DNA of 44,441 bases, from the sequence record SRR20825019_2178. One strand, written 5' to 3'. Below are positions 2,420 to 43,270 of this stretch, piece by piece. Under the pieces are notes generated by a model, which worked only from the letters and a program-made list of their open reading frames with translations, had not been told where the DNA came from and ran no database searches. Within the stretch, counting starts at the first letter, position 1. The number at the start of each line of letters is the position of its first letter. A program made the position numbers and the translations under genes.

Positions 2420-3247
2420 TCAATCGCATTCAGTGTCGGCGGACGACGTATCAACTGGCGTGATAATGACCTCCTTCACGCCCTTCCCATTGCCGTCGCC
2501 GATCGAATAGGTGCAGTCGACCTCCTCGATGTCGAAGCGTGAGAAGGTTTCGAAGACGCCTTGAACGGCGTTCAAGGACAGGATGAAGGTGCCTTGAAGG
2601 TCGCTTAAAGCCTCCGTCATCGCCTCGAAGTCCTCCCGGCCGAAGACGCCCGCGCCATAGTCAGCCTCGTTTCCCCAATAGGGCGGATCGAGATAGAACA
2701 GCATGCCCGGCCGGTCGTAGCGGCGGATGAAGTCCTGCCAGGGCAAGCATTCGATGACGACACCGGAAAGGCGCTCGTGGATGTCCTCCAGCGTCGAGGC
2801 GAGCTTGACCAGGTTGAAGCGCGCGCCGGTGGTCTTGCTGACGCCGAAATTCCGGCCGGCGACCTTGCCGCCGAAGGCGAGGCGCTGGAGGTAGAGGAAG
2901 CGGGCGGCGCGCTCGAGATCGGTCAGCGTCGTCGGGTCCGTCTTCATCAGCCGCTCGAACTCCCGCCTTCCGGAGATCTGGAAGCGCAGCGTATCCATGA
3001 ACTGCGGAAAGTGCCGCTGCAGGATGCGGAAGAAGTTGGCGACATCGCCGCTGATATCGTTGATCACCTCCGTCCTCGGCTGGCGATCGCGGCGCAGGAA
3101 CACGCCGCCCATGCCGACGAAGGGCTCGGCATAGCCGTCATGCGGGATCGCATTGATCCTGGCGATGACGGTCTTCGACAGGATGCGCTTGCCGCCGATA
3201 TAGCCGGCGGCGGGAACGGTCGGAGCGACCGGGCGCTGATTTACCAT
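2420..3247 (-). CDS. D12-class N6-adenine DNA methyltransferase (Dam-like)
   Basis: Motifs YIGGK, EPFVGMGGVF and LDPPY; sits in the position of mom at the distal end of Mu-like genomes; ATG at 3247 chosen as start. Confidence 0.93.
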   Translation of the reverse strand: MVNQRPVAPTVPAAGYIGGKRILSKTVIARINAIPHDGYAEPFVGMGGVFLRRDRQPRTEVINDISGDVANFFRILQRHFPQFMDTLRFQISGRREFERLMKTDPTTLTDLERAARFLYLQRLAFGGKVAGRNFGVSKTTGARFNLVKLASTLEDIHERLSGVVIECLPWQDFIRRYDRPGMLFYLDPPYWGNEADYGAGVFGREDFEAMTEALSDLQGTFILSLNAVQGVFETFSRFDIEEVDCTYSIGDGNGKGVKEVIITPVDTSSADTECD

Positions 3248-3275
3248 TTCAAATATCTCACGACTCAGCCACAAC

Positions 3276-19794: not shown

Positions 19795-20901
19795 TCAGTT
19801 GCGCGCCGTCAGACGCATGGCGGCGGCGGCCGGCGAAAGCGTCTCGCCCTTTTCGGCCGCCTTGGCGATTTCGGTTTCGATGGCGCTGGCGACATAAACG
19901 GCGTCGGAGAAGTCCGGCCCGTCGCCGGTGGCAAACTCGCCGGTCATCAGGGGCTTGGGAAGTTTGGCGAGGAGATCGCGAAAGGCCGCGCGCGGCGAGG
20001 TCTCGACGGTTTCGTCACCTTCGGAAAAAGTGAGGTCGTCGTCGCCAAGCTCGGAAAACAGCGCCGTGGCGGCGCCCTGCAGGCCGACGGGCAGACGCCC
20101 TTCCTTGACGACCCCGCTCACGAAGGCGGTATCCTCATCGGAGCGCCGCTTGCGCTCGGCTTCCGCGAACGCGGTCTCGCGGGTCTTCAGTTCGGCTTCG
20201 CGCGCTTCAAGCGCCGCCTGCCGTTCCTCGGCATTCGTATCCATGGTTTCGTCCTCGGTTGTGGTCTCGGAAAAGGCGGGGCGCGCCTCTTGCTGGCGGC
20301 CCTCGGCGCGCATATCGGCCGCCGCCCGCGCGAGATCGTCGATCTCCCAGTCGGGCAGGAATTTTTCCGCCGTCTCGGCGTCGGTGGTTTCGATGAAATA
20401 GTCCCTGAGGCCGCGAAACAGCTTGGTGAGGCTTTCCAGAGCCCAGGCATTGCGGAACACAAGGTCACTGTCGGAAAACTCGAACACCACCGCGTCGCCA
20501 TCGTCGAACTCGACCGGCTTCAGGCCCTTGACCGCCGGCGGCTGGGCACCGAGGAAGCCGACATGGCGCAGGTGATAGCGGCCGGGCGTCGGATTGCCGG
20601 CGCTTGAAGGCGCGTAGAAGGCAGCCGAAACCTTCTTGAAGGCGCCGGTGCGCACGAGTTCGGCAAAATCGGGATTGAGCTGGTCGGGTTCCGCCACCAG
20701 CCGGTCGCCCTCGACCTTCAGGGTCCTGATCCAGCCATAGGCCGGCGCGTCCTGCTTCGGATGGCCGACGACGATCGGGGCGAGATGGGCGTCCGGATCA
20801 TAACCGGAGGCGATCGCGCCGAGATCGGCGTCACCGAAAGAGAGCGTTTCGCCCTTCGATGTGGTATGCGTGCCGGTGCGGAAGATTTCGAATGTTTTCA
20901 T
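19795..20901 (-). CDS. Capsid maturation protease / scaffold (Mu gpI position)
   Basis: APIVVGHP, KKVSAAFY and LRHVGFLGAQPPAVKGL motifs; coiled-coil C-terminal scaffold. Confidence 0.88.
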   Translation of the reverse strand: MKTFEIFRTGTHTTSKGETLSFGDADLGAIASGYDPDAHLAPIVVGHPKQDAPAYGWIRTLKVEGDRLVAEPDQLNPDFAELVRTGAFKKVSAAFYAPSSAGNPTPGRYHLRHVGFLGAQPPAVKGLKPVEFDDGDAVVFEFSDSDLVFRNAWALESLTKLFRGLRDYFIETTDAETAEKFLPDWEIDDLARAAADMRAEGRQQEARPAFSETTTEDETMDTNAEERQAALEAREAELKTRETAFAEAERKRRSDEDTAFVSGVVKEGRLPVGLQGAATALFSELGDDDLTFSEGDETVETSPRAAFRDLLAKLPKPLMTGEFATGDGPDFSDAVYVASAIETEIAKAAEKGETLSPAAAAMRLTARN

Positions 20902-20939
20902 GCCGCCGACAATGCCAGCGGGCGGTCAGGCGAAACATT

Positions 20940-20954
20940 CACAAGCGCCTTGCG
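20940..20954 (-). promoter_or_regulatory. Candidate late-activator site of the head (PI-like) promoter
   Basis: CACAAG-CGC-CTTGCG; 14/15 identical to the reverse complement of the site before the lysis genes. Confidence 0.6.
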
Positions 20955-21138
20955 AGAGAGGCCCGGATTTGGGCTTCAGGGCCGGTTTCAGTCTTAAACC
21001 GGCAAACCGCCCCTGACAATCATCTGCCGGATCAAATTCGAAGCCCTTTCAAAGCCGCTGGGCGCGCATCAGCAATTTTTACGGATGACGAACCGGCCCG
21101 GACCTGCCTCACGCGTCCTGAGGCAAATATGAGGGTTT

Positions 21139-21642
21139 TCAGTCGGCGCTCGCAAACGGCTCGAAATGGTCCTGGATGATATCGAGAATGTCGGCGCGGT
21201 CCTTGTCGCTGAGACCGAGGAACGGACGCTTCGGAATGGTGACAGATTTCACCTTGATCGTCTTGCCGCCCATGGAGAACACCAGCGCCGGCGCGTCCTT
21301 GGCATTGATCACGCCGCCCTCATTGTGAATGCGGGCATAGATCTCGTTCGAACCGACCTCGACCGAGGCGTCGTCGACAAGTTGCCAGATGATCTGCGAT
21401 AGCGAACGGCTTTCGCCCTTCAGGATGCCCGAGCCCTTCTTGGTCTTTCGGTAAAGCGGATTGAGCGGCTTCCATGCCCGGCCGTCGGGGTCTTGCTCGT
21501 CGACGAAGCGCCGGCGCGTGGCGGCCGCCTCGTGTTCGCCGATATTCTTCAGCGCCGGCGTGATGGTGTCGGCGGCCTGGTAAAGTCGCGTCAGCCCGGC
21601 ATCGATATCCTCATCGCGGATCGTCAGCGTTGCGGCAGTCAT
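21139..21642 (-). CDS. Virion morphogenesis protein (Mu gpG / tail completion S family)
   Basis: RFVDEQDPDGRAWKPL, VGSNEIYARIHNEGG and IPKRPFLGLS motifs. Confidence 0.9.
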   Translation of the reverse strand: MTAATLTIRDEDIDAGLTRLYQAADTITPALKNIGEHEAAATRRRFVDEQDPDGRAWKPLNPLYRKTKKGSGILKGESRSLSQIIWQLVDDASVEVGSNEIYARIHNEGGVINAKDAPALVFSMGGKTIKVKSVTIPKRPFLGLSDKDRADILDIIQDHFEPFASAD

Positions 21643-21748
21643 TTGAAAACCATGCCTCCTGGCTTATGATGCTCTGGTCCGGGTGAGGCTTTCGGGAGCC
21701 CTCCGTAGCTCGGACACTGAGCGCGCCGCCCGACACGGCGCGTTTGAA
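21643..21748 (+). ncRNA. Putative antisense small-RNA cassette 1 (promoter, long hairpin, terminator)
   Basis: TTGAAA-N16-TATGAT; hairpin at about 21671-21722; terminator-like stem 21719-21745 with G-U pairs only on the + strand. Confidence 0.5.
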
Positions 21749-21860
21749 GTTTTCCTCGGGTTTGACTACATTCCCGTTCGCGAGCGCGTCTGGCTGTTCC
21801 GGCCACGATCCATAAAGCGCGTCGTCAGGGCGGCCGGGCCGGAGTGGCCGCCCTCTATTT
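21744..21860 (+). ncRNA. Putative antisense small-RNA cassette 2 (promoter, long hairpin, terminator)
   Basis: TTGAAG-N17-TACATT; hairpin at about 21780-21825; 9-bp stem AGGGCGGCC/GGCCGCCCT at 21827-21854. Confidence 0.5.
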
Positions 21861-23096
21861 CCTGCGATAGAGCATCGCTCCCTTCCTGAAATTGCGGATA
21901 TAGCGCGCATTCGTCTGAAACCCGGTCGTCGCGATCCAGCCCTTGGAACTCCATTCGAAGCGCACGAACAGCGACTTTTCATCCGGCAAAAGGAAGTTTC
22001 GCAGGTAGGATCGCTTCAGCGCCAGGCCGGATGCGACGCGCGCCCAGTCGGCCCAGATCTCGTCCGGATCGCGGATGGTATCGGCGAGCAGCAGCATGTA
22101 GGGACCGCGATCGAACTTGTTGCTCTTGTTGCCGGTGACCGCGCCGCTCTGGTCACGGGCGAGAAACAGGCGCTCCGAGAGCGTGACAATCCCGCCCGAG
22201 ACGTCGCGAAAATAACCATGCGATTCCCGCTCAACGCCGAATTCTTCCAGGAAGCGGCCGGCATAGTCCTCGTCCGAAAGCCCTCCTGGCAGCAGCCGCG
22301 CGGCGGGCACTGGCGTGGCGGCGGGAAGCGGCGGCAGGTCGGGGTCGGGTTTCGCGGTCTCGTCAAATGGTGCAAGCGGCTTGCGCAGCTCCGGCGGCAC
22401 GACGCCGTTCAGCCATTCCTCGCCGACATTGTAGGCCCAGCCGCGGTCAATCCCGGGATAGCGGGTTTCGGGTTCGCCGGTGCGCGGATCGCTGTCCTCA
22501 TAGGGGCGAAGATCCGGCGCCTGGTCGGGACCATCCTTGCCGAGCGCCTTCAACTGCCGCTCAGACAGCGCCTCAATGTCGCAGCCGCAACCCCAGCCAT
22601 TCGGCGGAAACATGATCCGCCAGGCCGGATCGGTTGCCGCGAGCACAAGTCCGTTCCAGGACAGATGGAGCTTACGCGGATGGAGCGCACCCGAATGGAC
22701 GTATTTCCAGTACGGACGGTATTTCAGGACATCGGGATCGGTGAGTTGCTTGTAGCGCCCGGCCATATAGGACGTGCGCATATTGGTGGTGTAGATGATC
22801 CGCGCGCGCCAGGCGCGGCGTTCCTCCTCGGTCTTGCCGTGCGAATTGTAGCGCCAGCCCGTCCGATCGACGATCGCGTCGAAGTCCTTGCGGAATTCCT
22901 TGAGGCCGGTGCCTGCCGCGCGCGCTTTCTCAATTGCCGCCCGGAAATCCGCCAGCATGTCGTCGCGGGTCACGCCGGCGACAGAAAAGCCGCGTACCTG
23001 GGCGGCATGCTTCAGGTCATCATGGCGACGCGTCGGCAAGTTGACCTTACCTGTCAGAAACTCGATCGCCTCCTTGAACGGTATCTGGTCAGCCAT
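21855..23096 (-). CDS. MuF head morphogenesis protein with C-terminal PBECR2-like nuclease domain
   Basis: MuF motifs IYTTNMRTSYMAGRY and FPPNGWGCGC; C-terminal LLADTIRDPDEIW...RSYL...TTGF...RKGAMLYRRK. Confidence 0.88.
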   Translation of the reverse strand: MADQIPFKEAIEFLTGKVNLPTRRHDDLKHAAQVRGFSVAGVTRDDMLADFRAAIEKARAAGTGLKEFRKDFDAIVDRTGWRYNSHGKTEEERRAWRARIIYTTNMRTSYMAGRYKQLTDPDVLKYRPYWKYVHSGALHPRKLHLSWNGLVLAATDPAWRIMFPPNGWGCGCDIEALSERQLKALGKDGPDQAPDLRPYEDSDPRTGEPETRYPGIDRGWAYNVGEEWLNGVVPPELRKPLAPFDETAKPDPDLPPLPAATPVPAARLLPGGLSDEDYAGRFLEEFGVERESHGYFRDVSGGIVTLSERLFLARDQSGAVTGNKSNKFDRGPYMLLLADTIRDPDEIWADWARVASGLALKRSYLRNFLLPDEKSLFVRFEWSSKGWIATTGFQTNARYIRNFRKGAMLYRRK

Positions 23097-24567
23097 CGGA
23101 GCCCACGCTGTCGTGGCCTTCGAGGCGGGCAAGCGTCATGCCCTGCTCCATCAGCTCCGCGAAACCGTCGACGCCCATTTCGGCCGAAAGCCGAGCAAGT
23201 CGCAGCGACAGATCATCGAAGTCGGTTGCCGCGTTCACCTGGTTGCGGATTTCTTCGATCATCGCGGCGATGACCGGGTCGCCGAGCGTCTCCATCTGAT
23301 CGGCGATGTCCGTCGCGGCGTCAGGCGGATGCGTGTGCTCGGCGAAGTCATGATCGTCTCCGGCCGCCGGCGGTTGCGCCTTCGACGGATCGATTGCCGG
23401 CTCCGGCGCTTTCCGCTTCACCCAAGCGCCGCCATAGGTCTCGCTGAAATAGTCCTCGTCTTCGGGCTCATAGCCCATTTCATAGATCGTCTTGTCACGC
23501 GCGACCTTGTCGTTGAGGTCTTCCGCCTCCGAGAAATCACGCCAGACCTCGGGGATTGCAGCCCCCGGCCAGTTGGCTTCGACGAACCAGCGCACCAGCG
23601 TATCGCGCACAGTCTCGCAGACGAGATCGGCCGCTGCCTTGGCGATCGCGATGCGGACCTCGTTATGGATCTCGCCGAGCGACCGTGCGCCGCGCTCGCC
23701 GGAATTGGTCGAAAGCGTCTCACCGAGCACCGCCTCGCTCATCAACTCGTCGAGATAGCGCGACAACGCCTCATAGACATCGCCGCCGCCGGAGTTCTTG
23801 GCTTCGAGCAGGCTGACATTGACCGTGTCCGGGACGGCAAGCCCGGTATCGCCCGCCATTCGGCGCAGCGCATCGAGCAGTTGATCCTGCTTTGCCTGAT
23901 CGAAGCCGCCGCTATATTGCGCAAGCGTCGTCGGCGTCGCGTGTTTTTCCGTGCCGCGCAGCCAGTGCGCCAGCACCTGCCGCTTGAACCAGGCCGGCCA
24001 GAACAGCACCGAGCCGATCCCGACGCCGTAAGGATCGTCGTCGTCATCGTCGATCGAATGGCGATGGACGATGAACTTGCGATCGGGAACCGGCTCGCCG
24101 TCCATGGTGCTGGAGCGGGTCAGCATGCGCAGCTCGCCCTCGACGGTGAAGCGGAAGCGGCGCTGCTTCTTGACCTTGACCGCCCCGGCCTTCCACATTG
24201 CCTCGTCGTTGATCCAGACGATTTCGGCGACGGCAAATCCCTTGAGCACCGCACCGAGCAGACCGCGCGTCAGCCGGTCGAAGTTGATCGCCTTGAGCTG
24301 GGTTTCGACGGCGTCGGCGATCTTCTTATCCGCGCGTTTCTCCGATGCCGGAAACACCGCCCATTCGCGTGAGACCACTTCAAGCTTCAGCTTGGAGAGC
24401 ACCGCATGGGCATGCGGATCGCGCCTGATCTCGTCATAAAGCTTCAGCGCGCTCGCGCCGCCGCGCGCCGCAAGCACCTCATCCATGGGCTGCAGCACGC
24501 CCTGAAACGACGGAATGAACGGATCGCTGGCAGCGGTGGCGATTTCGGCGCGTTCGAGTTTTGCCAT
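23089..24567 (-). CDS. Portal protein, DUF935 (Mu gp29)
   Basis: KGFAVAEIVW, PYGVG and AVLGETLST...SLGEIHNEVR motifs. Confidence 0.92.
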   Translation of the reverse strand: MAKLERAEIATAASDPFIPSFQGVLQPMDEVLAARGGASALKLYDEIRRDPHAHAVLSKLKLEVVSREWAVFPASEKRADKKIADAVETQLKAINFDRLTRGLLGAVLKGFAVAEIVWINDEAMWKAGAVKVKKQRRFRFTVEGELRMLTRSSTMDGEPVPDRKFIVHRHSIDDDDDDPYGVGIGSVLFWPAWFKRQVLAHWLRGTEKHATPTTLAQYSGGFDQAKQDQLLDALRRMAGDTGLAVPDTVNVSLLEAKNSGGGDVYEALSRYLDELMSEAVLGETLSTNSGERGARSLGEIHNEVRIAIAKAAADLVCETVRDTLVRWFVEANWPGAAIPEVWRDFSEAEDLNDKVARDKTIYEMGYEPEDEDYFSETYGGAWVKRKAPEPAIDPSKAQPPAAGDDHDFAEHTHPPDAATDIADQMETLGDPVIAAMIEEIRNQVNAATDFDDLSLRLARLSAEMGVDGFAELMEQGMTLARLEGHDSVGSDG

Positions 24568-38823: not shown

Positions 38824-39252
38824 ATGATTTTCATTTCTTATGCAAAAGAAGACGCCGATTATGCGCAGGCTCTTTATAAAGCCCTTCGCGAACGCCAATT
38901 AGATCCATGGATGGATAAGCCTCCTGAGCCCTACCAGTATGATGGGCTAACGATCGGTCAGAAATGGGAGACCGTTCTCCGGCAGAAGCTTGCCGAGGCA
39001 GCGAAGATAATTTTAGTGCTATCAGACAACTCGATTAGAAAGCGTGGCTACGTCCAGAACGAATTTCGGATTGCGCTTGAGCGCATGAATCATCTTCCTG
39101 ATAATGACATTCTAGTTTTACCTTTGCTGGTTCACCAATGTGAGGTCCCTGCTTTGTCTGTGGGAAATATAAGTTTGACGCAATTACAATGGGAGGTTGT
39201 TCCGAAAGAATCTTTGGCCGATTTCGCAAAACACCTTTCGGAACTCGCTTAG
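38824..39252 (+). CDS. Stand-alone TIR-domain protein (142 aa)
   Basis: IFISYA..D, WMD, IILVLSDNS, YVQNEF (catalytic Glu) and VLPLL motifs; low GC. Confidence 0.9.
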   Translation: MIFISYAKEDADYAQALYKALRERQLDPWMDKPPEPYQYDGLTIGQKWETVLRQKLAEAAKIILVLSDNSIRKRGYVQNEFRIALERMNHLPDNDILVLPLLVHQCEVPALSVGNISLTQLQWEVVPKESLADFAKHLSELA

Positions 39253-39262
39253 GATACGTGCA

Positions 39263-40561
39263 ATGATAAAAGAGCAAAAACTATCAAATATCCTCAGCCA
39301 TGGTCGTGTTTTGTGGGATGTCGAGGTCGGTCGGTTTCACTATCGAAATAATATTGTCGCAGTTGATGAACTTCTTTTTGTAAGCACTTCAGGTGCTGAA
39401 AGGAATGTAGCAGATGATCGCGATGGCGTCGTTTGTCTTCATAAGACTGAAGGGCAACAGGTATGGCGTTTTAATTCGGTCGGGGATCCCAACTCAGTAA
39501 TTTACAAAGATCGCAAGGTACTCGGAGGAACGGACCAGGGCCAGCTGTTTGCTTTGAATTCCGAATCCGGAGATATTTCCGCAGAGTATCGATGCCAGGC
39601 GCCGGTGGCGGCTAAACCGGTTCTGATTGAAGAATCTGGACGTGATTTGGCAGTTTTCATTGCGGTATCCGGGGAGATCATTGGATACGATTTCTCTTCC
39701 TCTTCATTTTCGATGATGGGCAAAATCGATGGAGTATTTACGTCGGATCCGGCGACTAGCGAGGATCTGATACGGCAGAGCACGTTTTTTGTGGCGAGTG
39801 ACAACGGATTTATTTACCGGGCGAAAATAGTTGGCAATGAAGTGGACGCTACCCACTTAAGTACACTTGTTGGAGGGAGAAGCGATTGGGGACCTTCAGG
39901 GATCGTAGTGCGAGGTATTTCCACTTTAGTCATCCATGAGGACAAGCTTATTGTCTCCTATGAACGAGACACAACTTACGCGAATCCTCCAATTTCCTGC
40001 TTCGATATTCAGTCTGGGATTGAGATTTGGAGGGCGAAGCCCGTTAAGACTTTATCGAAGAGGCATATAGATTATGGGAATGGCCGTGTTTCACCCGTGA
40101 TATTTGGGAGGGAAGTGATTACGACCTTCGCCTACACTGACAGTGTTTATTCGTTTTCTCTAGATTCCGGTCGAGGCCTGTGGAGAGCCAAGCTCGACAG
40201 AGGTTTCTTCCAAAATTGGGCTTCCCCCAGCCTAGACATTTCGAACGGCGCTCGTTTCCTATACGTCCCTAGAGTAAATGGGGTTCTTCACAAAGTGGAT
40301 CTGCGTAAGAAGAAACTGGTTGATTCACTATCGGTTGAGGTTGGCAGATATCAAACCAATGATCACCCAGATACCTTGGGGGACCAGGAGGGATGGTGGG
40401 AAGGTACACATCCTATAGGCGAGGAAATGATCGGCGGCGATGGTAAACCCCCCTACCCAAGGGATGAACTAGAAGCTGGCTTGGCAGCTACCCCTCTAAT
40501 TTTGGACGATATGATTATCGTTGGTGGGGTCTCTGGTCGGCTGCGCGCATTTCGAAAATAA
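39263..40561 (+). CDS. PQQ/BamB-like beta-propeller repeat protein (432 aa)
   Basis: Repeated G..xWR blades (EGQQVWRF, SGIEIWRA, SGRGLWRA) and G.L.A strands; AGGA SD; no signal peptide. Confidence 0.8.
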   Translation: MIKEQKLSNILSHGRVLWDVEVGRFHYRNNIVAVDELLFVSTSGAERNVADDRDGVVCLHKTEGQQVWRFNSVGDPNSVIYKDRKVLGGTDQGQLFALNSESGDISAEYRCQAPVAAKPVLIEESGRDLAVFIAVSGEIIGYDFSSSSFSMMGKIDGVFTSDPATSEDLIRQSTFFVASDNGFIYRAKIVGNEVDATHLSTLVGGRSDWGPSGIVVRGISTLVIHEDKLIVSYERDTTYANPPISCFDIQSGIEIWRAKPVKTLSKRHIDYGNGRVSPVIFGREVITTFAYTDSVYSFSLDSGRGLWRAKLDRGFFQNWASPSLDISNGARFLYVPRVNGVLHKVDLRKKKLVDSLSVEVGRYQTNDHPDTLGDQEGWWEGTHPIGEEMIGGDGKPPYPRDELEAGLAATPLILDDMIIVGGVSGRLRAFRK

Positions 40562-41017: not shown

Positions 41018-41950
41018 CTATTTGAACTCGATTTTCAGGCTCGGATCGGTCTCGAATTCTTCCACGATCTCATTATAGCGCCTGACGACATCGCCAACGG
41101 CCACGCGCCGCCCCTCGGCCGCAAAGCTTCCCAGCTCATAGAGATTGAGCGCCACGAACTGCTCGACTTCGAACACGTCGATCCGATCTCCAAGCCCAGC
41201 ATTTTCAGCCAGAACCTCGGCGGTCGTGAGGCCGCGCGCCGTAGTAACAATCATAGCTCGATGCCCATTATTAATATTGTCGCTACAGCGGCGGACCACC
41301 GCTTCGCCGGGCGCTGTCGTGACATGGATAGCGACATCGCCGATAAAGAAATCGCCATGACGGCCAGTCTGTTGGTCTGAAGTTGAGAAGCTATTGTGCT
41401 CAAATTTGACGTCCTTCAAAGCGCAATCCAACTTCGCACCGACGAGATGCTGTAGAACGGCACCAGCATATTGCATGCCAGGGGCCTCTTTCTGACGTTC
41501 TACAGCTTGACCAATTACATCTCTGACCACGTGCCGGAGGCTCCGAGAAGCATCAAGTTTGATCTTGAAGGGCTGGCTGGCGAAGAAAGCTAGAACACGC
41601 TCAATCCAAAAGCGCTCAACGAAAGACAAGTCTACGGGTTCTTTTGCCGCAAGTGAATTTAAGAAAGCAACGTATTCACGCATGTTGTCAATGCTACCGC
41701 GGCTTGTTCGCCCGGCTTCTGAAGCCAACACTCTGAAGATGCTATGTCGCTTAAGAATGTTTTGGACGCCACCCTTGCCCAAGCCACTTACCTGCCCGCC
41801 TTTTGGCGATAGAAGATCATCCGGATTCAGCGGTAACCCTCGCTTGCGCGCGTGCTCTGTCACCACCAGCGCAACTGACAAAGTTCCCTTCCCAGAAAAT
41901 TTGTGAGCTTTGGCAAACTCCTGCAGCGATTTTTCGATTTCACTTGCCAT
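41018..41950 (-). CDS. DUF4928-like protein, putative restriction endonuclease
   Basis: EAGRTSRGS, GAVLQHLVGAKL and GDF.IGDVAIHVT motifs; lies between C5-MTase and vsr. Confidence 0.7.
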   Translation of the reverse strand: MASEIEKSLQEFAKAHKFSGKGTLSVALVVTEHARKRGLPLNPDDLLSPKGGQVSGLGKGGVQNILKRHSIFRVLASEAGRTSRGSIDNMREYVAFLNSLAAKEPVDLSFVERFWIERVLAFFASQPFKIKLDASRSLRHVVRDVIGQAVERQKEAPGMQYAGAVLQHLVGAKLDCALKDVKFEHNSFSTSDQQTGRHGDFFIGDVAIHVTTAPGEAVVRRCSDNINNGHRAMIVTTARGLTTAEVLAENAGLGDRIDVFEVEQFVALNLYELGSFAAEGRRVAVGDVVRRYNEIVEEFETDPSLKIEFK

Positions 41951-41952
41951 TC

Positions 41953-43107
41953 CTAGGCTGCCGCCTTGCCATTACTCTCATGCACGGCGCTCAAAAGCGG
42001 CTCAAGGATATTTTCCGCCAGAAAGCGGACGACGGGCACGGCCACGCCATCGCCGGCAAGATGATAGGCCTCATTGTAGCTGTCCGGCAGAATATAGTCG
42101 TCATCCAGTCCCATGAGGCGCGCAGCCTCGCGCGGCGACAACAGCCTGGACCGCACGCTTTTTCCCTCGACGACCATGATGGTCTGGCGACTGGAGCCGC
42201 CCGCCGGCGTGCGCAGGCAACCCGCAACGTCGTCGAAGCGGATCTCCGCGCGCTGGATTTTCTCGCCGTTTTTTCCGGTTAGGCGGGTGCGCTTGTAGAT
42301 CGTGCCAACCATGCGGCGTCCGGTTTTGCGCGCGGCGTCGACCTTGGCTAGGTTGACCGGGCTCATCATGTCCAAAAGCCGTTGGGTTTCTTCTGCGGTG
42401 TGCCACTGGACCCGTTTCGGCTGATCTTCAACGAGGTCGGCAAAGACCGTGTTGCGCGCCGGCGGGGCCGGCAGCCGCCACCAGACCCAAGCGCCCTTCG
42501 CCTTCCACGACAGCTTGTCATAAGCCTGAATGAGGCTTTGCGGATGCCACTTTGGATCCGGCTCTACGCTGGACATCGCTTCGACGAACGGGATCGACTC
42601 CTTGCGCGCGCCAATGATGAACAGGCGCGGCCGCGACTGCGGGACAAAGTCGACCGCATTAGCGACGATGGCGCCGACGAGATAACCCGCGCGCTCCATC
42701 GCTTCGCAAATCGCGGCGAAATCCTTGCCGCCATGCGAGTTCAGCGCGCCGCAGACATTTTCGAGGGCAATCAGATGCGGCGCGCGGCCTTCTTCTTCAA
42801 GGCCGGCAATCAACCGCCAAAACGGCCAGAACGTGCCCGAGCGATCGCCGCTCAAACCGGCGCCGCCGCCGGCAAGCGAGAGATCCTGACACGGGAAGGA
42901 GGCCCAGGCGAGATCGGCGCGGCCCGGCAGATCGGCGCGGGTCAGCTCGGCGACATCGCGCACGACCAGATGATCGTCGCCCCAATTGGCCGCATAGCTT
43001 GCCGCCTTCTTCTGGTCGAGATCGTTGGCCAGCAGACATTCCCAGCCAGCGCCCAGCCCTGCCCGCGCCATGCCGCCGCCAGAAAAGAACTCGTAAAATG
43101 CGTTCAT
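41953..43107 (-). CDS. dcm: C5-cytosine DNA methyltransferase
   Basis: FSGGG, FPCQD, ENV and QSRPR motifs. Confidence 0.95.
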   Translation of the reverse strand: MNAFYEFFSGGGMARAGLGAGWECLLANDLDQKKAASYAANWGDDHLVVRDVAELTRADLPGRADLAWASFPCQDLSLAGGGAGLSGDRSGTFWPFWRLIAGLEEEGRAPHLIALENVCGALNSHGGKDFAAICEAMERAGYLVGAIVANAVDFVPQSRPRLFIIGARKESIPFVEAMSSVEPDPKWHPQSLIQAYDKLSWKAKGAWVWWRLPAPPARNTVFADLVEDQPKRVQWHTAEETQRLLDMMSPVNLAKVDAARKTGRRMVGTIYKRTRLTGKNGEKIQRAEIRFDDVAGCLRTPAGGSSRQTIMVVEGKSVRSRLLSPREAARLMGLDDDYILPDSYNEAYHLAGDGVAVPVVRFLAENILEPLLSAVHESNGKAAA

Positions 43108-43270
43108 CTGCTGCCCCAAATCGAAATCGCTTTCTGCGCGACAGGTTAGACGGTAGGCCCAGAGCACATCAAGGCGCGATTATCAAACGCCATGATCGAG
43201 GCGTGGATAACGCGCGAATTGGAACGCGTCCGATACTGCCGAAGCCTCGACGCTGTCTTGCCCTGCCTTT

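Follow-up and report, generated by a model that had tools for sequence, protein, structure and literature searches.

Two putative small structured RNA genes in the MuF-gpG gap of a Mu-like prophage, possible partners of the PBECR2 domain of MuF

Background

The window analysed here, a DNA stretch of 44,441 nucleotides from sequence record SRR20825019_2178 taken at its full length, is a complete Mu-like prophage whose late genes lie on the minus strand according to Pfam. Two of these late genes, coding for the MuF head protein and the virion morphogenesis protein gpG, are separated by a gap of 212 bp (21643-21854), and the question raised by this locus is what the gap encodes. An earlier sequence-only reading had described in it two tandem plus-strand units, at the place where a MuF immunity gene would be expected, and had suggested that they are small RNAs serving as antitoxin, guide or decoy for the PBECR2-like RNase, or else as decoys against host defence. 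Our analysis of the gap and of its counterparts in related phages suggests that it very probably contains two small structured RNA genes on the plus strand, and this high confidence extends to the genes, their strand and their fold. We further propose, tentatively, that the RNAs are partners of the PBECR2 RNase domain, most likely as an inhibitor or immunity factor; taken as a whole, with the function included, this second statement is a possibility that falls somewhat short of being probable.

Results

A predicted kissing-hairpin fold conserved among relatives of unit 1

The gap was compared with those of 14 loci from genomes (Martelella, Shinella, Rhizobium, Neorhizobium, Mesorhizobium and others), 163 loci from viral and metagenome contigs obtained through gpG (two profile scans, represented by the best 80 of 99 and the best 80 of 492 matches), and 24 further loci obtained with a MuF query; in each locus (L numbers below) the MuF stop and the gpG start were located to define the gap. 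The gpG-proximal unit of the window (unit 1; Table 1) belongs to a family of 22 gaps (family B; alignments A2 and A3). The conserved features of this family are the TTG of the -35 box and the TA...T of the -10 box (invariant or nearly so in A2), and the RNA segments GAGGC and CCTCCGTAG. The core made up of GAGGC and CCCUCCGUAG is identical in 22 of 22 rows, and helix P1 starts 6-7 nt past the -10 box in most members.

A covariation analysis of these gaps, which the sequence-only reading had put forward as a check, finds the structure conserved. A covariance model (R1) was built from A3 with a hand-written structure and the 22 rows were realigned to it; 90.7% of 538 cells are paired and 17 of the 25 pairs carry compensatory changes, counts that are inflated by the fitting of the alignment to the structure. 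None of 500 shuffles gave pairing or compensation as high, and sliding one partner by 1-3 columns left 37-45% of the cells paired. Because the R1 alignment is model-fitted, P1 was also stacked without gaps from the invariant anchors, giving 172 Watson-Crick, 29 G-U, 10 A-C and 31 other combinations in 242 cells. The G-U pairs had been read as favouring the plus strand in unit 1, where they make up two of the eight stem pairs, and the same bias is seen across family B: 29 G-U versus 10 A-C in the gapless stacking and 33 versus 14 on the R1 alignment, an excess of about 3:1 on the plus strand. The tails agree in direction, with at least four T in the 8 nt past the terminator in 22 of 22 rows on the RNA strand versus 3 of 22 on the other strand, although the T-rich tail is partly encoded by the MuF stop codon and the Lys/Arg-rich last codons of MuF. 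A strict promoter pattern (TTG-N16-18-nAnnnT) was sought on either strand. In antisense direction it is present in 17 of the 20 gaps of family B, in all four gaps that contain only the second type of unit described below (family A) and in 7 of 11 other gaps; the corresponding counts on the late-gene strand are 0 of 20, 0 of 4 and 1 of 11, and the three family-B gaps that miss the pattern each differ from it by one base. Taken with the family-B pairing, the promoter pattern, the G-U excess and the T-rich tails point to an RNA on the plus strand of the window.

Of particular interest is a tertiary contact that the sequence-only reading had missed. The bases of the P2 apical loop can pair with those of the terminator loop, and the two loops covary as a kissing-loop pseudoknot; at least five variants occur, among them UUCCGG/CCGGAA, GCCGG/CCGGC, UCGGG/CCCGA (the window), CGUCGGCG/CGCCGACG and CCGUUCG/CGAACGG. 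Cognate loop pairs have a mean of 6.1 contiguous Watson-Crick pairs, with five or more in 20 of 22, compared with a mean of 3.7 for non-cognate pairs (five or more in 35 of 398) and 3.4 for shuffled loops (12% at five or more). The loop-loop covariation therefore suggests that the RNA adopts a compact kissing-hairpin fold, and the invariant, CGUA-containing asymmetric loop is probably a hinge in the modelled structure.

The family appears to be confined to this location. R1 detects a single strong copy in the window and a single copy in each of three host genomes; among 151 genomes from the order, it matched the centre genome only, a result of little weight as 30 candidates per genome were scored. 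A scan of viral contigs for the invariant motif gave at least 118 stretches, and among the 80 of these that were examined, 10 pass R1, all of them known MuF-gpG gaps. The conserved loops mimic the 3' domain of 16S rRNA no better than shuffled motifs do, and the complement of the invariant motif, as a trans-target, has 12 matches in the window versus 13.5 expected.

Unit 2 and further RNA families with the same layout

The MuF-proximal unit of the window (unit 2) represents a second family (family A). Seven family-A RNAs, from about five lineages, fold singly into P1, P2, a 3' internal loop of the AUCC.UAAA type and a terminator, and they follow this common plan despite P1 sequences that are unrelated to one another. 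In the RNAalifold consensus, CCGG(C/U)C pairs with G(G/A)CCGG of the terminator loop, with one C-G to U-A change. Since the sequences are few, the evidence for a family-A fold is thinner than that for family B. The two units had been said to share an architecture and no sequence; the common architecture holds, and includes the kissing loop as well, but the likeness is greater than was stated, as R1 weakly matches unit 2 on the same strand (18 bits, E 0.17) and gives similarly weak same-strand matches to all family-A copies (15-25 bits, E 0.005-0.8).

More distant phages carry further families with this layout at the equivalent position. Family C (L126, L131, L132 and L137, from a second PBECR2 clade) has a 7-bp kiss, GCCAACC/GGUUGGC, and an antisense TTGAC(C/T)-N17 promoter in three of its four loci, and family D (L009) has a 7-bp kiss of CUGCAAC/GUUGCAG. 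Minimum-free-energy-based detection of kissing loops gave nothing clear in L008, L010, L011, L017, L120, L123, L129, L135, L139 and L149, whose RNAs are left unclassified.

Signals in the window itself

The two plus-strand units of the sequence-only reading, each with promoter, hairpin and terminator, are borne out by inspection of the gap, the sequence strings being found where that reading had placed them. Both lie downstream of MuF, in convergent orientation and antisense to the late genes. The promoter of unit 1 matches the consensus at 10 of 12 bases and is the sole sigma70-like site that a promoter scan finds across 17-27 kb, where shuffled sequence gives a mean of 1.6; its spacer contains, on the opposite strand, the Shine-Dalgarno sequence of gpG (AGGAGG, 21655-21660). 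The promoter of unit 2 is weaker (8 of 12 matches, under the threshold of the scan), and its -35 box sits within the T-rich tail of unit 1. A terminator scan of the same 10 kb gives 17 sites versus 9.7+/-3.5 expected, and its top two hairpins are those of the two units, both on the plus strand and both in the gap. The whole gap folds with -93.4 kcal/mol on the plus strand (z -1.75) and -82.2 kcal/mol on the minus strand (z -0.21). The tail of unit 2 covers the MuF stop and about two codons, and the remaining RNA is complementary to the intercistronic spacer only. On its own, the window provides suggestive evidence for RNA units, and it is through the comparison with related loci that the signals of RNA genes rise above chance. 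Viewed together, the window and its relatives display sequence features by which a stand-alone small RNA gene is recognized, namely a promoter on the RNA strand, an intrinsic terminator on the same strand and a covarying structure without a conserved open reading frame (ORF).

A protein-coding explanation of the gap is ruled out, in agreement with the view that it holds no credible ORF: none of the ORFs that cross the gap has a Pfam match, the lengths of related gaps differ modulo 3, and L110 lacks any frame open for more than 30 codons. Tandem Repeats Finder reports no rows for 21500-22000. An inverted-repeat listing gave none for the gap, although the terminator scan and the folds show hairpins there, and it was not relied on. 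The Rfam search suggested in the sequence-only reading brought no identification: Rfam 15 has no match at E up to 10 in 21300-22200, none at gathering score in the whole window, and none at E up to 0.1 in five related loci. A blastn search of the MuF-gpG region against the phage collection likewise found no match.

Table 1. Features of the MuF-gpG gap, its flanking genes and the prophage; RNA elements are predictions
Feature	Position	Strand	Details and evidence
Unit 1 promoter	21643..21670	+	-35 TTGAAA 21643-21648, N16, -10 TATGAT 21665-21670; abuts gpG start codon
Unit 1 RNA (family B, ~80 nt)	21677..21757	+	Model R1, 65.9 bits, E 1.7e-12
Unit 1 P1	21677-21684 with 21708-21715	+	
Unit 1 P2	21685-21690 with 21697-21703	+	GAGGCT with AGCCCTC
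Unit 1 kissing loops	21692-21696 with 21729-21733	+	TCGGG with CCCGA
Unit 1 invariant sequence	21699-21708	+	CCCTCCGTAG
Unit 1 3' internal loop	21704-21707	+	CGTA
Unit 1 terminator hairpin	21718-21746	+	T-rich tail to ~21757; terminator scan
Unit 2 promoter	21744..21772	+	-35 TTGAAG 21744-21749, N17, -10 TACATT 21767-21772
Unit 2 RNA (family A, ~85 nt)	21779..21863	+	Folds, terminator scan
Unit 2 P1/P2 hairpin	21780-21825	+	3' internal loop CCATAAA 21810-21816
Unit 2 candidate kissing pair	21798-21804 with 21837-21843	+	TCCGGCC with GGCCGGA
Unit 2 terminator hairpin	21827-21854	+	Terminator scan
Unit 2 tail		+	CTATTTCCT; overlaps MuF stop codon (21855-21857) and last MuF codons
MuF head protein with C-terminal PBECR2 domain (residues 293-423)	21855..23132	-	Pfam, PHROG
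gpG (Phage_tail_S, virion morphogenesis protein)	21139..21642	-	Pfam PF05069, E 3.1e-28
Mu transposase, MuB, GemA, gp27, Mu-type portal, MuF, gpG, tail genes	window		Pfam matches
S24 repressor	window	+	Pfam

Modularity of the MuF-gpG slot

The gaps of related phages are modular, as expected of the stackable cassettes that had been proposed: relatives carry unit A alone, unit B alone, both, or other families. Both units occur in L001 and L016; only the gpG-proximal unit, corresponding to unit 1 of the window, in L002 and L015; and only a unit like the MuF-proximal one in L007/L099, L003, L004 and L006/L020. The promoter boxes of window unit 2 are identical in L016, L001 has TGCATT, and in the loci with family A only, the homologous boxes are stronger (for example TTGAAA-17-TATTAT). 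Many Mu-like phages, close relatives included, have no spacer at all between MuF and gpG. In Pseudomonas phage JBD25 (L300, 2499-2501) the distance is 1 nt, so the spacer is not a general property of Mu-like phages.

The slot is also filled by sense-strand ORFs in other clades, for which Pfam and PHROGs provide no usable name. L005 (4376-4822), as well as L101 and L102, contain a 148-residue sense-strand ORF between MuF and the family-B RNA gene, which matches nothing but a PHROG of unknown function, and that weakly (E 0.0025). An 82-residue sense-strand ORF without a Pfam or PHROG match lies directly upstream of gpG in the second PBECR2 clade (L125, 2250-2498; L126, L130-L132, L134, L136-L138 and L140) and is present regardless of whether the PBECR2 positions or the family-C RNA are kept; some loci of this clade add an ORF of 83-84 residues rich in hydrophobic residues. 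In L118 (40-2160), MuF is fused to an ADP-ribosyltransferase exoenzyme-type domain, and two small sense-strand ORFs lie in the 316-bp gap behind it. By its sequence, this is the layout classically seen for a MuF toxin and a candidate immunity gene.

Association with the PBECR2 domain of MuF

MuF of the window (425 residues; PHROG 220, minor head protein and DNA pilot) matches PF04233 (Phage_Mu_F, E 4.4e-10) and PF18810 (PBECR2, E 1.3e-31), and hence joins a MuF N-terminal part to a C-terminal effector-type domain in a temperate phage (transposase, MuB and S24 repressor). The protein, encoded at 21855-23132, is mosaic: its N-terminal 260 residues are 94% identical to those of the Martelella loci L001 and L002, whereas its PBECR2 part is 52-55% identical to theirs and 68-71% identical to that of the Rhizobium and Shinella loci L007 and L003. 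This contrast in sequence identity indicates a domain swap with a breakpoint in the linker. In excerpts from Iyer et al. (2017, PMC5512222), F of phage Mu itself is described as ending in a PBECR-type domain, called inactive, and active PBECR versions in Mu F orthologs are described as likely RNases delivered with the virion. On this account, since Mu F is itself PBECR-ended, MuF with PBECR2 would be the ordinary Mu F architecture and not an exotic toxin fusion, which makes the premise of the sequence-only reading, a MuF toxin in want of an immunity gene, weaker than it had been stated.

The presence of the RNA cassettes follows the state of this domain in an alignment of the last 140 MuF residues (55 rows, six of them duplicates of another row). 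At four conserved PBECR2 positions, K, K (E in two rows), R and T are found in all 36 rows with a cassette of families A-D, and the MuF of the window has K, K, R and T there. Of the 14 rows whose MuF directly adjoins gpG or a sense-strand ORF, none keeps these positions; the five rows with an unclassified spacer have KKRT (three), KART and APR-. Short MuF proteins without the C-terminal domain abut gpG in seven of seven cases, with a gap of at most 10 nt. On the domain tree, the rows that lack a cassette are found in at least two separate clades, which points to at least two separate losses: one group comprises L113-115/L305 with L116/L307, which the gpG tree joins (support 83, with a long-branch warning), and the other is the L125 group, nested beside the cassette-bearing L132 and L137; the divergent subgroup of L119 and L156 is likewise cassette-less. 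The domain tree also places the unit-A loci in one clade except L001, which has units A and B and clusters with L002 and L015 of family B, so that unit A accompanies all A-clade domains and unit B all B-clade domains. Since the cassettes are kept only where the PBECR2 domain is kept, the RNAs may neutralise the domain or partner it. The link to PBECR2 made in the sequence-only reading is thus upheld as a correlation, the cassettes being found only where the four positions are retained, and at that level only.

Discussion

A possible mechanism and the points against it

In the explanation that we favour, the gap would hold two independently transcribed non-coding RNA genes, on the plus strand, convergent with MuF and antisense to the late operon. 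A host sigma70-type promoter would set the 5' end of each RNA at the base of a two-helix hairpin (P1 and P2) that carries the conserved asymmetric 3' internal loop and is followed by an intrinsic terminator, and pairing of the terminator loop with the apical loop of P2 would produce the compact kissing-hairpin fold. The RNAs may act together with the C-terminal PBECR2 RNase-like domain of the adjacent MuF, most likely by binding and inhibiting it. Such inhibition would protect the cell that is making virions, and would protect a lysogen from the same domain injected by related phages, so that the RNAs would occupy the place taken by a small immunity protein beside other MuF toxins. Each unit, A or B, would match its own PBECR2 clade, and stacking the two would widen protection. 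The fullest form of this idea is RNA immunity to a virion-delivered RNase, in which each kissing-hairpin family inhibits its own PBECR2 clade, constitutive expression from the prophage protects lysogen and producing cell alike, and stacked non-cognate units serve, like orphan immunity genes, against the injected RNases of rival Mu-like phages; in this full form we regard it as doubtful.

Several observations weigh against the RNA genes or against their proposed function. The single-sequence signals of the window are weak, with a fold z of -1.75 and one promoter against 1.6 expected, a count that by itself is not above chance, and the pair counts on the R1 alignment carry the inflation mentioned above. 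Physical adjacency by itself would be enough to make unit type agree with PBECR2 clade, and the association between cassette and PBECR2 rests on two or three evolutionary events. Individual loci also depart from a strict pairing: unit A of L001 is the direct neighbour of a B-clade PBECR2, unit B of the window is present without a domain of that clade, and L149 has a spacer yet lacks the conserved positions. In L017, L123 and L135, antisense promoter cassettes adjoin MuF C-terminal domains that Pfam does not call PBECR2; together with L149, they indicate that the slot is not exclusive to PBECR2. The convergent orientation and the absence of repeats are unlike the known toxin-binding RNA antitoxins. 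Finally, the toxicity of the PBECR2 domain, like the catalytic role of the K, K, R and T residues, is putative.

Alternative explanations

An explanation that dispenses with a protein partner is that the RNAs are cis-antisense regulators of the late transcript. Their match to the RNA between MuF and gpG, and to the 3' end of the MuF mRNA, is perfect, and pairing would lead to cleavage or decay, keep leaky expression of MuF silent in lysogens, or uncouple the upstream half of the late operon from the downstream half. The units are indeed convergent and fully complementary to the spacer of the late mRNA, with a terminator tail that overlaps the stop codon of MuF. A single layout shared by four sequence families unrelated to one another is what would be expected if only complementarity in cis mattered; with the MuF message as the target, loss of the cassette alongside PBECR2 decay would fit as well. 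However, the MuF coding sequence is overlapped at its final few codons only, the Shine-Dalgarno of gpG, being part of the promoter spacer, is left uncovered by the RNA, and many Mu-like phages do without the spacer. Regulation in cis would also have no need of a core that is invariant in 22 of 22 rows or of an intramolecular kissing fold, and we consider it unlikely. Signals on the minus strand or in the DNA itself, whether a late promoter with an activator-binding dyad, hairpins that process or stabilise the mRNA, or chance GC-rich palindromes, are very unlikely to account for the gap. The -10-like box reads nearly identically on either strand, hairpins form on both strands, and the P2 dyad would lie about 42 bp upstream of a minus-strand -10 box, which is the position bound by Mu Mor and C. 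Against such signals, the strict promoter pattern is found on the minus strand in 0 of 24 gaps of families A and B, T-rich tails occur on the plus strand only, G-U exceeds A-C there by about 3:1, and the covariation of P1 and of the two loops has no explanation at the DNA level; moreover, close relatives lack the spacer altogether, and the other late operons of the window have no second copy of the motif upstream. As the main explanation, a late promoter with its activator site is rejected on account of the strand of the promoters, the T-rich tails and the lack of a second motif copy.

The other alternative to partnership with PBECR2 is that the units are accessory ('moron') small RNAs that act in trans on RNAs of the host or of competing phages, or as decoys for defence systems, in a slot that is merely tolerant of insertions and has no connection with PBECR2. 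Each unit does have its own promoter and terminator inside a late operon, the units are swappable and stackable, and the slot holds unrelated small ORFs in other relatives. There is also precedent in excerpts from Tree et al. (2014, PMC4104026), where convergent small RNAs are found at conserved moron sites of lambdoid prophages, one of them antisense and located 3' of stx2. We nevertheless find this explanation improbable, to the same degree as regulation in cis. The target-like motif is no more frequent in the window than expected (12 matches versus 13.5), and the conserved CCUCC is mostly paired within P2, and so would not be exposed as a seed. The family is found in this slot only (the 10 R1-passing stretches among the 80 examined, of at least 118 with the motif), and an unconnected slot leaves unexplained why the cassette is lost exactly where the PBECR2 positions decay or the domain is absent.

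Relation to known systems

Type III antitoxins of the ToxI/ToxN type consist of tandem short repeats, are encoded on the same strand as the toxin and upstream of it, and are cut by the toxin. By analogy, the RNAs described here resemble them as structured, pseudoknotted RNAs beside an endoribonuclease-type protein that they could inhibit, and in being lost upon decay of the conserved positions of that protein. They differ in having no tandem repeats, in that the two units lack alignable common sequence beyond the 18-bit model match, and in being convergent with MuF and downstream of it, with a promoter for each unit and a component of the virion head as the partner. Lambda OOP RNA and the Bacillus type I antitoxins RatA and SR4 are convergent antisense RNAs that overlap the 3' end of their target genes; the predicted units would share with them the short length, constitutive promoter, intrinsic terminator and convergence on the upstream gene, with a possible overlap at its 3' end. 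Here, however, only the last few codons of MuF are overlapped, an invariant core and an intramolecular kissing fold are present, and the partner is a virion protein of 425 residues and not a small hydrophobic membrane toxin or cII. RNA anti-CRISPRs (Racrs) mimic CRISPR repeats and, like the units of the gap, are small phage-encoded RNAs for which a decoy role has been proposed; in the units, by contrast, the hairpin sequences vary between loci and only a core that is not a repeat is invariant.

By analogy, the nearest known kind is that of prophage small RNAs at moron sites. The 'anti-sRNAs' AsxR and AgvB of Escherichia coli O157 lambdoid prophages, as described in excerpts from Tree et al. 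(2014, PMC4104026), are Hfq-bound sponges of 51-60 nt located downstream of PR'. The likeness, as far as these excerpts go, is that short RNAs, each with a promoter and a terminator of its own, are encoded at a conserved site of the late region that tolerates insertions, are convergent with or antisense to the late transcript, and form related but non-identical groups. On the same basis, the units described here differ in length (about 80-85 nt), in their covarying kissing-hairpin, in their location between MuF and gpG of Rhizobiales Mu-like phages, and in that their presence tracks the state of a neighbouring protein domain; there is no relation in sequence or in Rfam. No description of small RNAs in the MuF-gpG gap was found in the literature searched, which excludes most subscription journals and supplements.

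The MuF polymorphic toxins provide the closest parallel for the slot. In excerpts from Jamet et al. (2017, PMC5576092), small ORFs are reported after 89.4% of 191 MuF toxin genes versus 25.5% of 952 short MuF genes, and the presence/absence reasoning applied there to immunity genes parallels that used here. As in that system, a temperate phage encodes MuF with a C-terminal effector-type domain, and the downstream slot is occupied alongside the domain but vacant behind short MuF proteins; the difference, judged from the same excerpts, is that the slot here holds an RNA gene on the opposite strand and not a small same-strand ORF (<150 aa), toxicity and immunity both being putative. More distant relatives do have sense-strand ORFs in the slot, without a family match. 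The excerpts leave open whether the C-terminal extensions of proteobacterial MuF proteins are toxin domains, and the PBECR2 domain of the window is probably an extension of the type called 'Ct_MAD' there.

Other features of the prophage and its surroundings

The next gap of the late operon, between gpG and the following late gene (20902-21138, 237 bp; the late gene at 19795-20901), is likewise non-coding and holds hairpins together with a plus-strand terminator-like site at 21057-21073. Its minus strand contains the string CATCCGTAAAAA, which is reminiscent of the family-A loop motif; model R1 has no match in this gap. The G-I position of Pseudomonas Mu-like phages is a site of anti-CRISPR loci. 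Just beyond the repressor end of the prophage, at 38824-40561 on the plus strand, an ORF with a TIR domain (TIR_2, and a weaker match to ThsB_TIR) overlaps a beta-propeller/PQQ-like ORF, and this pair may be a defence gene pair. At 41018-43167 on the minus strand, a DUF4928 protein adjoins a C-5 cytosine methylase in what looks like a restriction-modification pair, and a D12-class N6-adenine methylase is encoded at the opposite end of the prophage (2420-3274, minus strand).

Conclusions

The RNAs of the MuF-gpG gap would constitute a class of structured RNA outside Rfam, with at least four sequence families that share one kissing-hairpin layout and a constant location in the Mu-like prophages of Rhizobiales and of some other Proteobacteria. 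RNA genes whose loss accompanies that of the conserved positions of a domain offer a concrete, testable partner for the question of what the C-terminal extensions of MuF do. If the proposed function is true, they would add a first RNA-based immunity partner to the polymorphic-toxin-like systems and form a new class of phage RNAs that bind protein, which suggests that immunity to a phage-delivered effector can be borne by RNA and stacked. Even if the function is wrong, the gap would represent a modular small-RNA slot inside a phage head operon.

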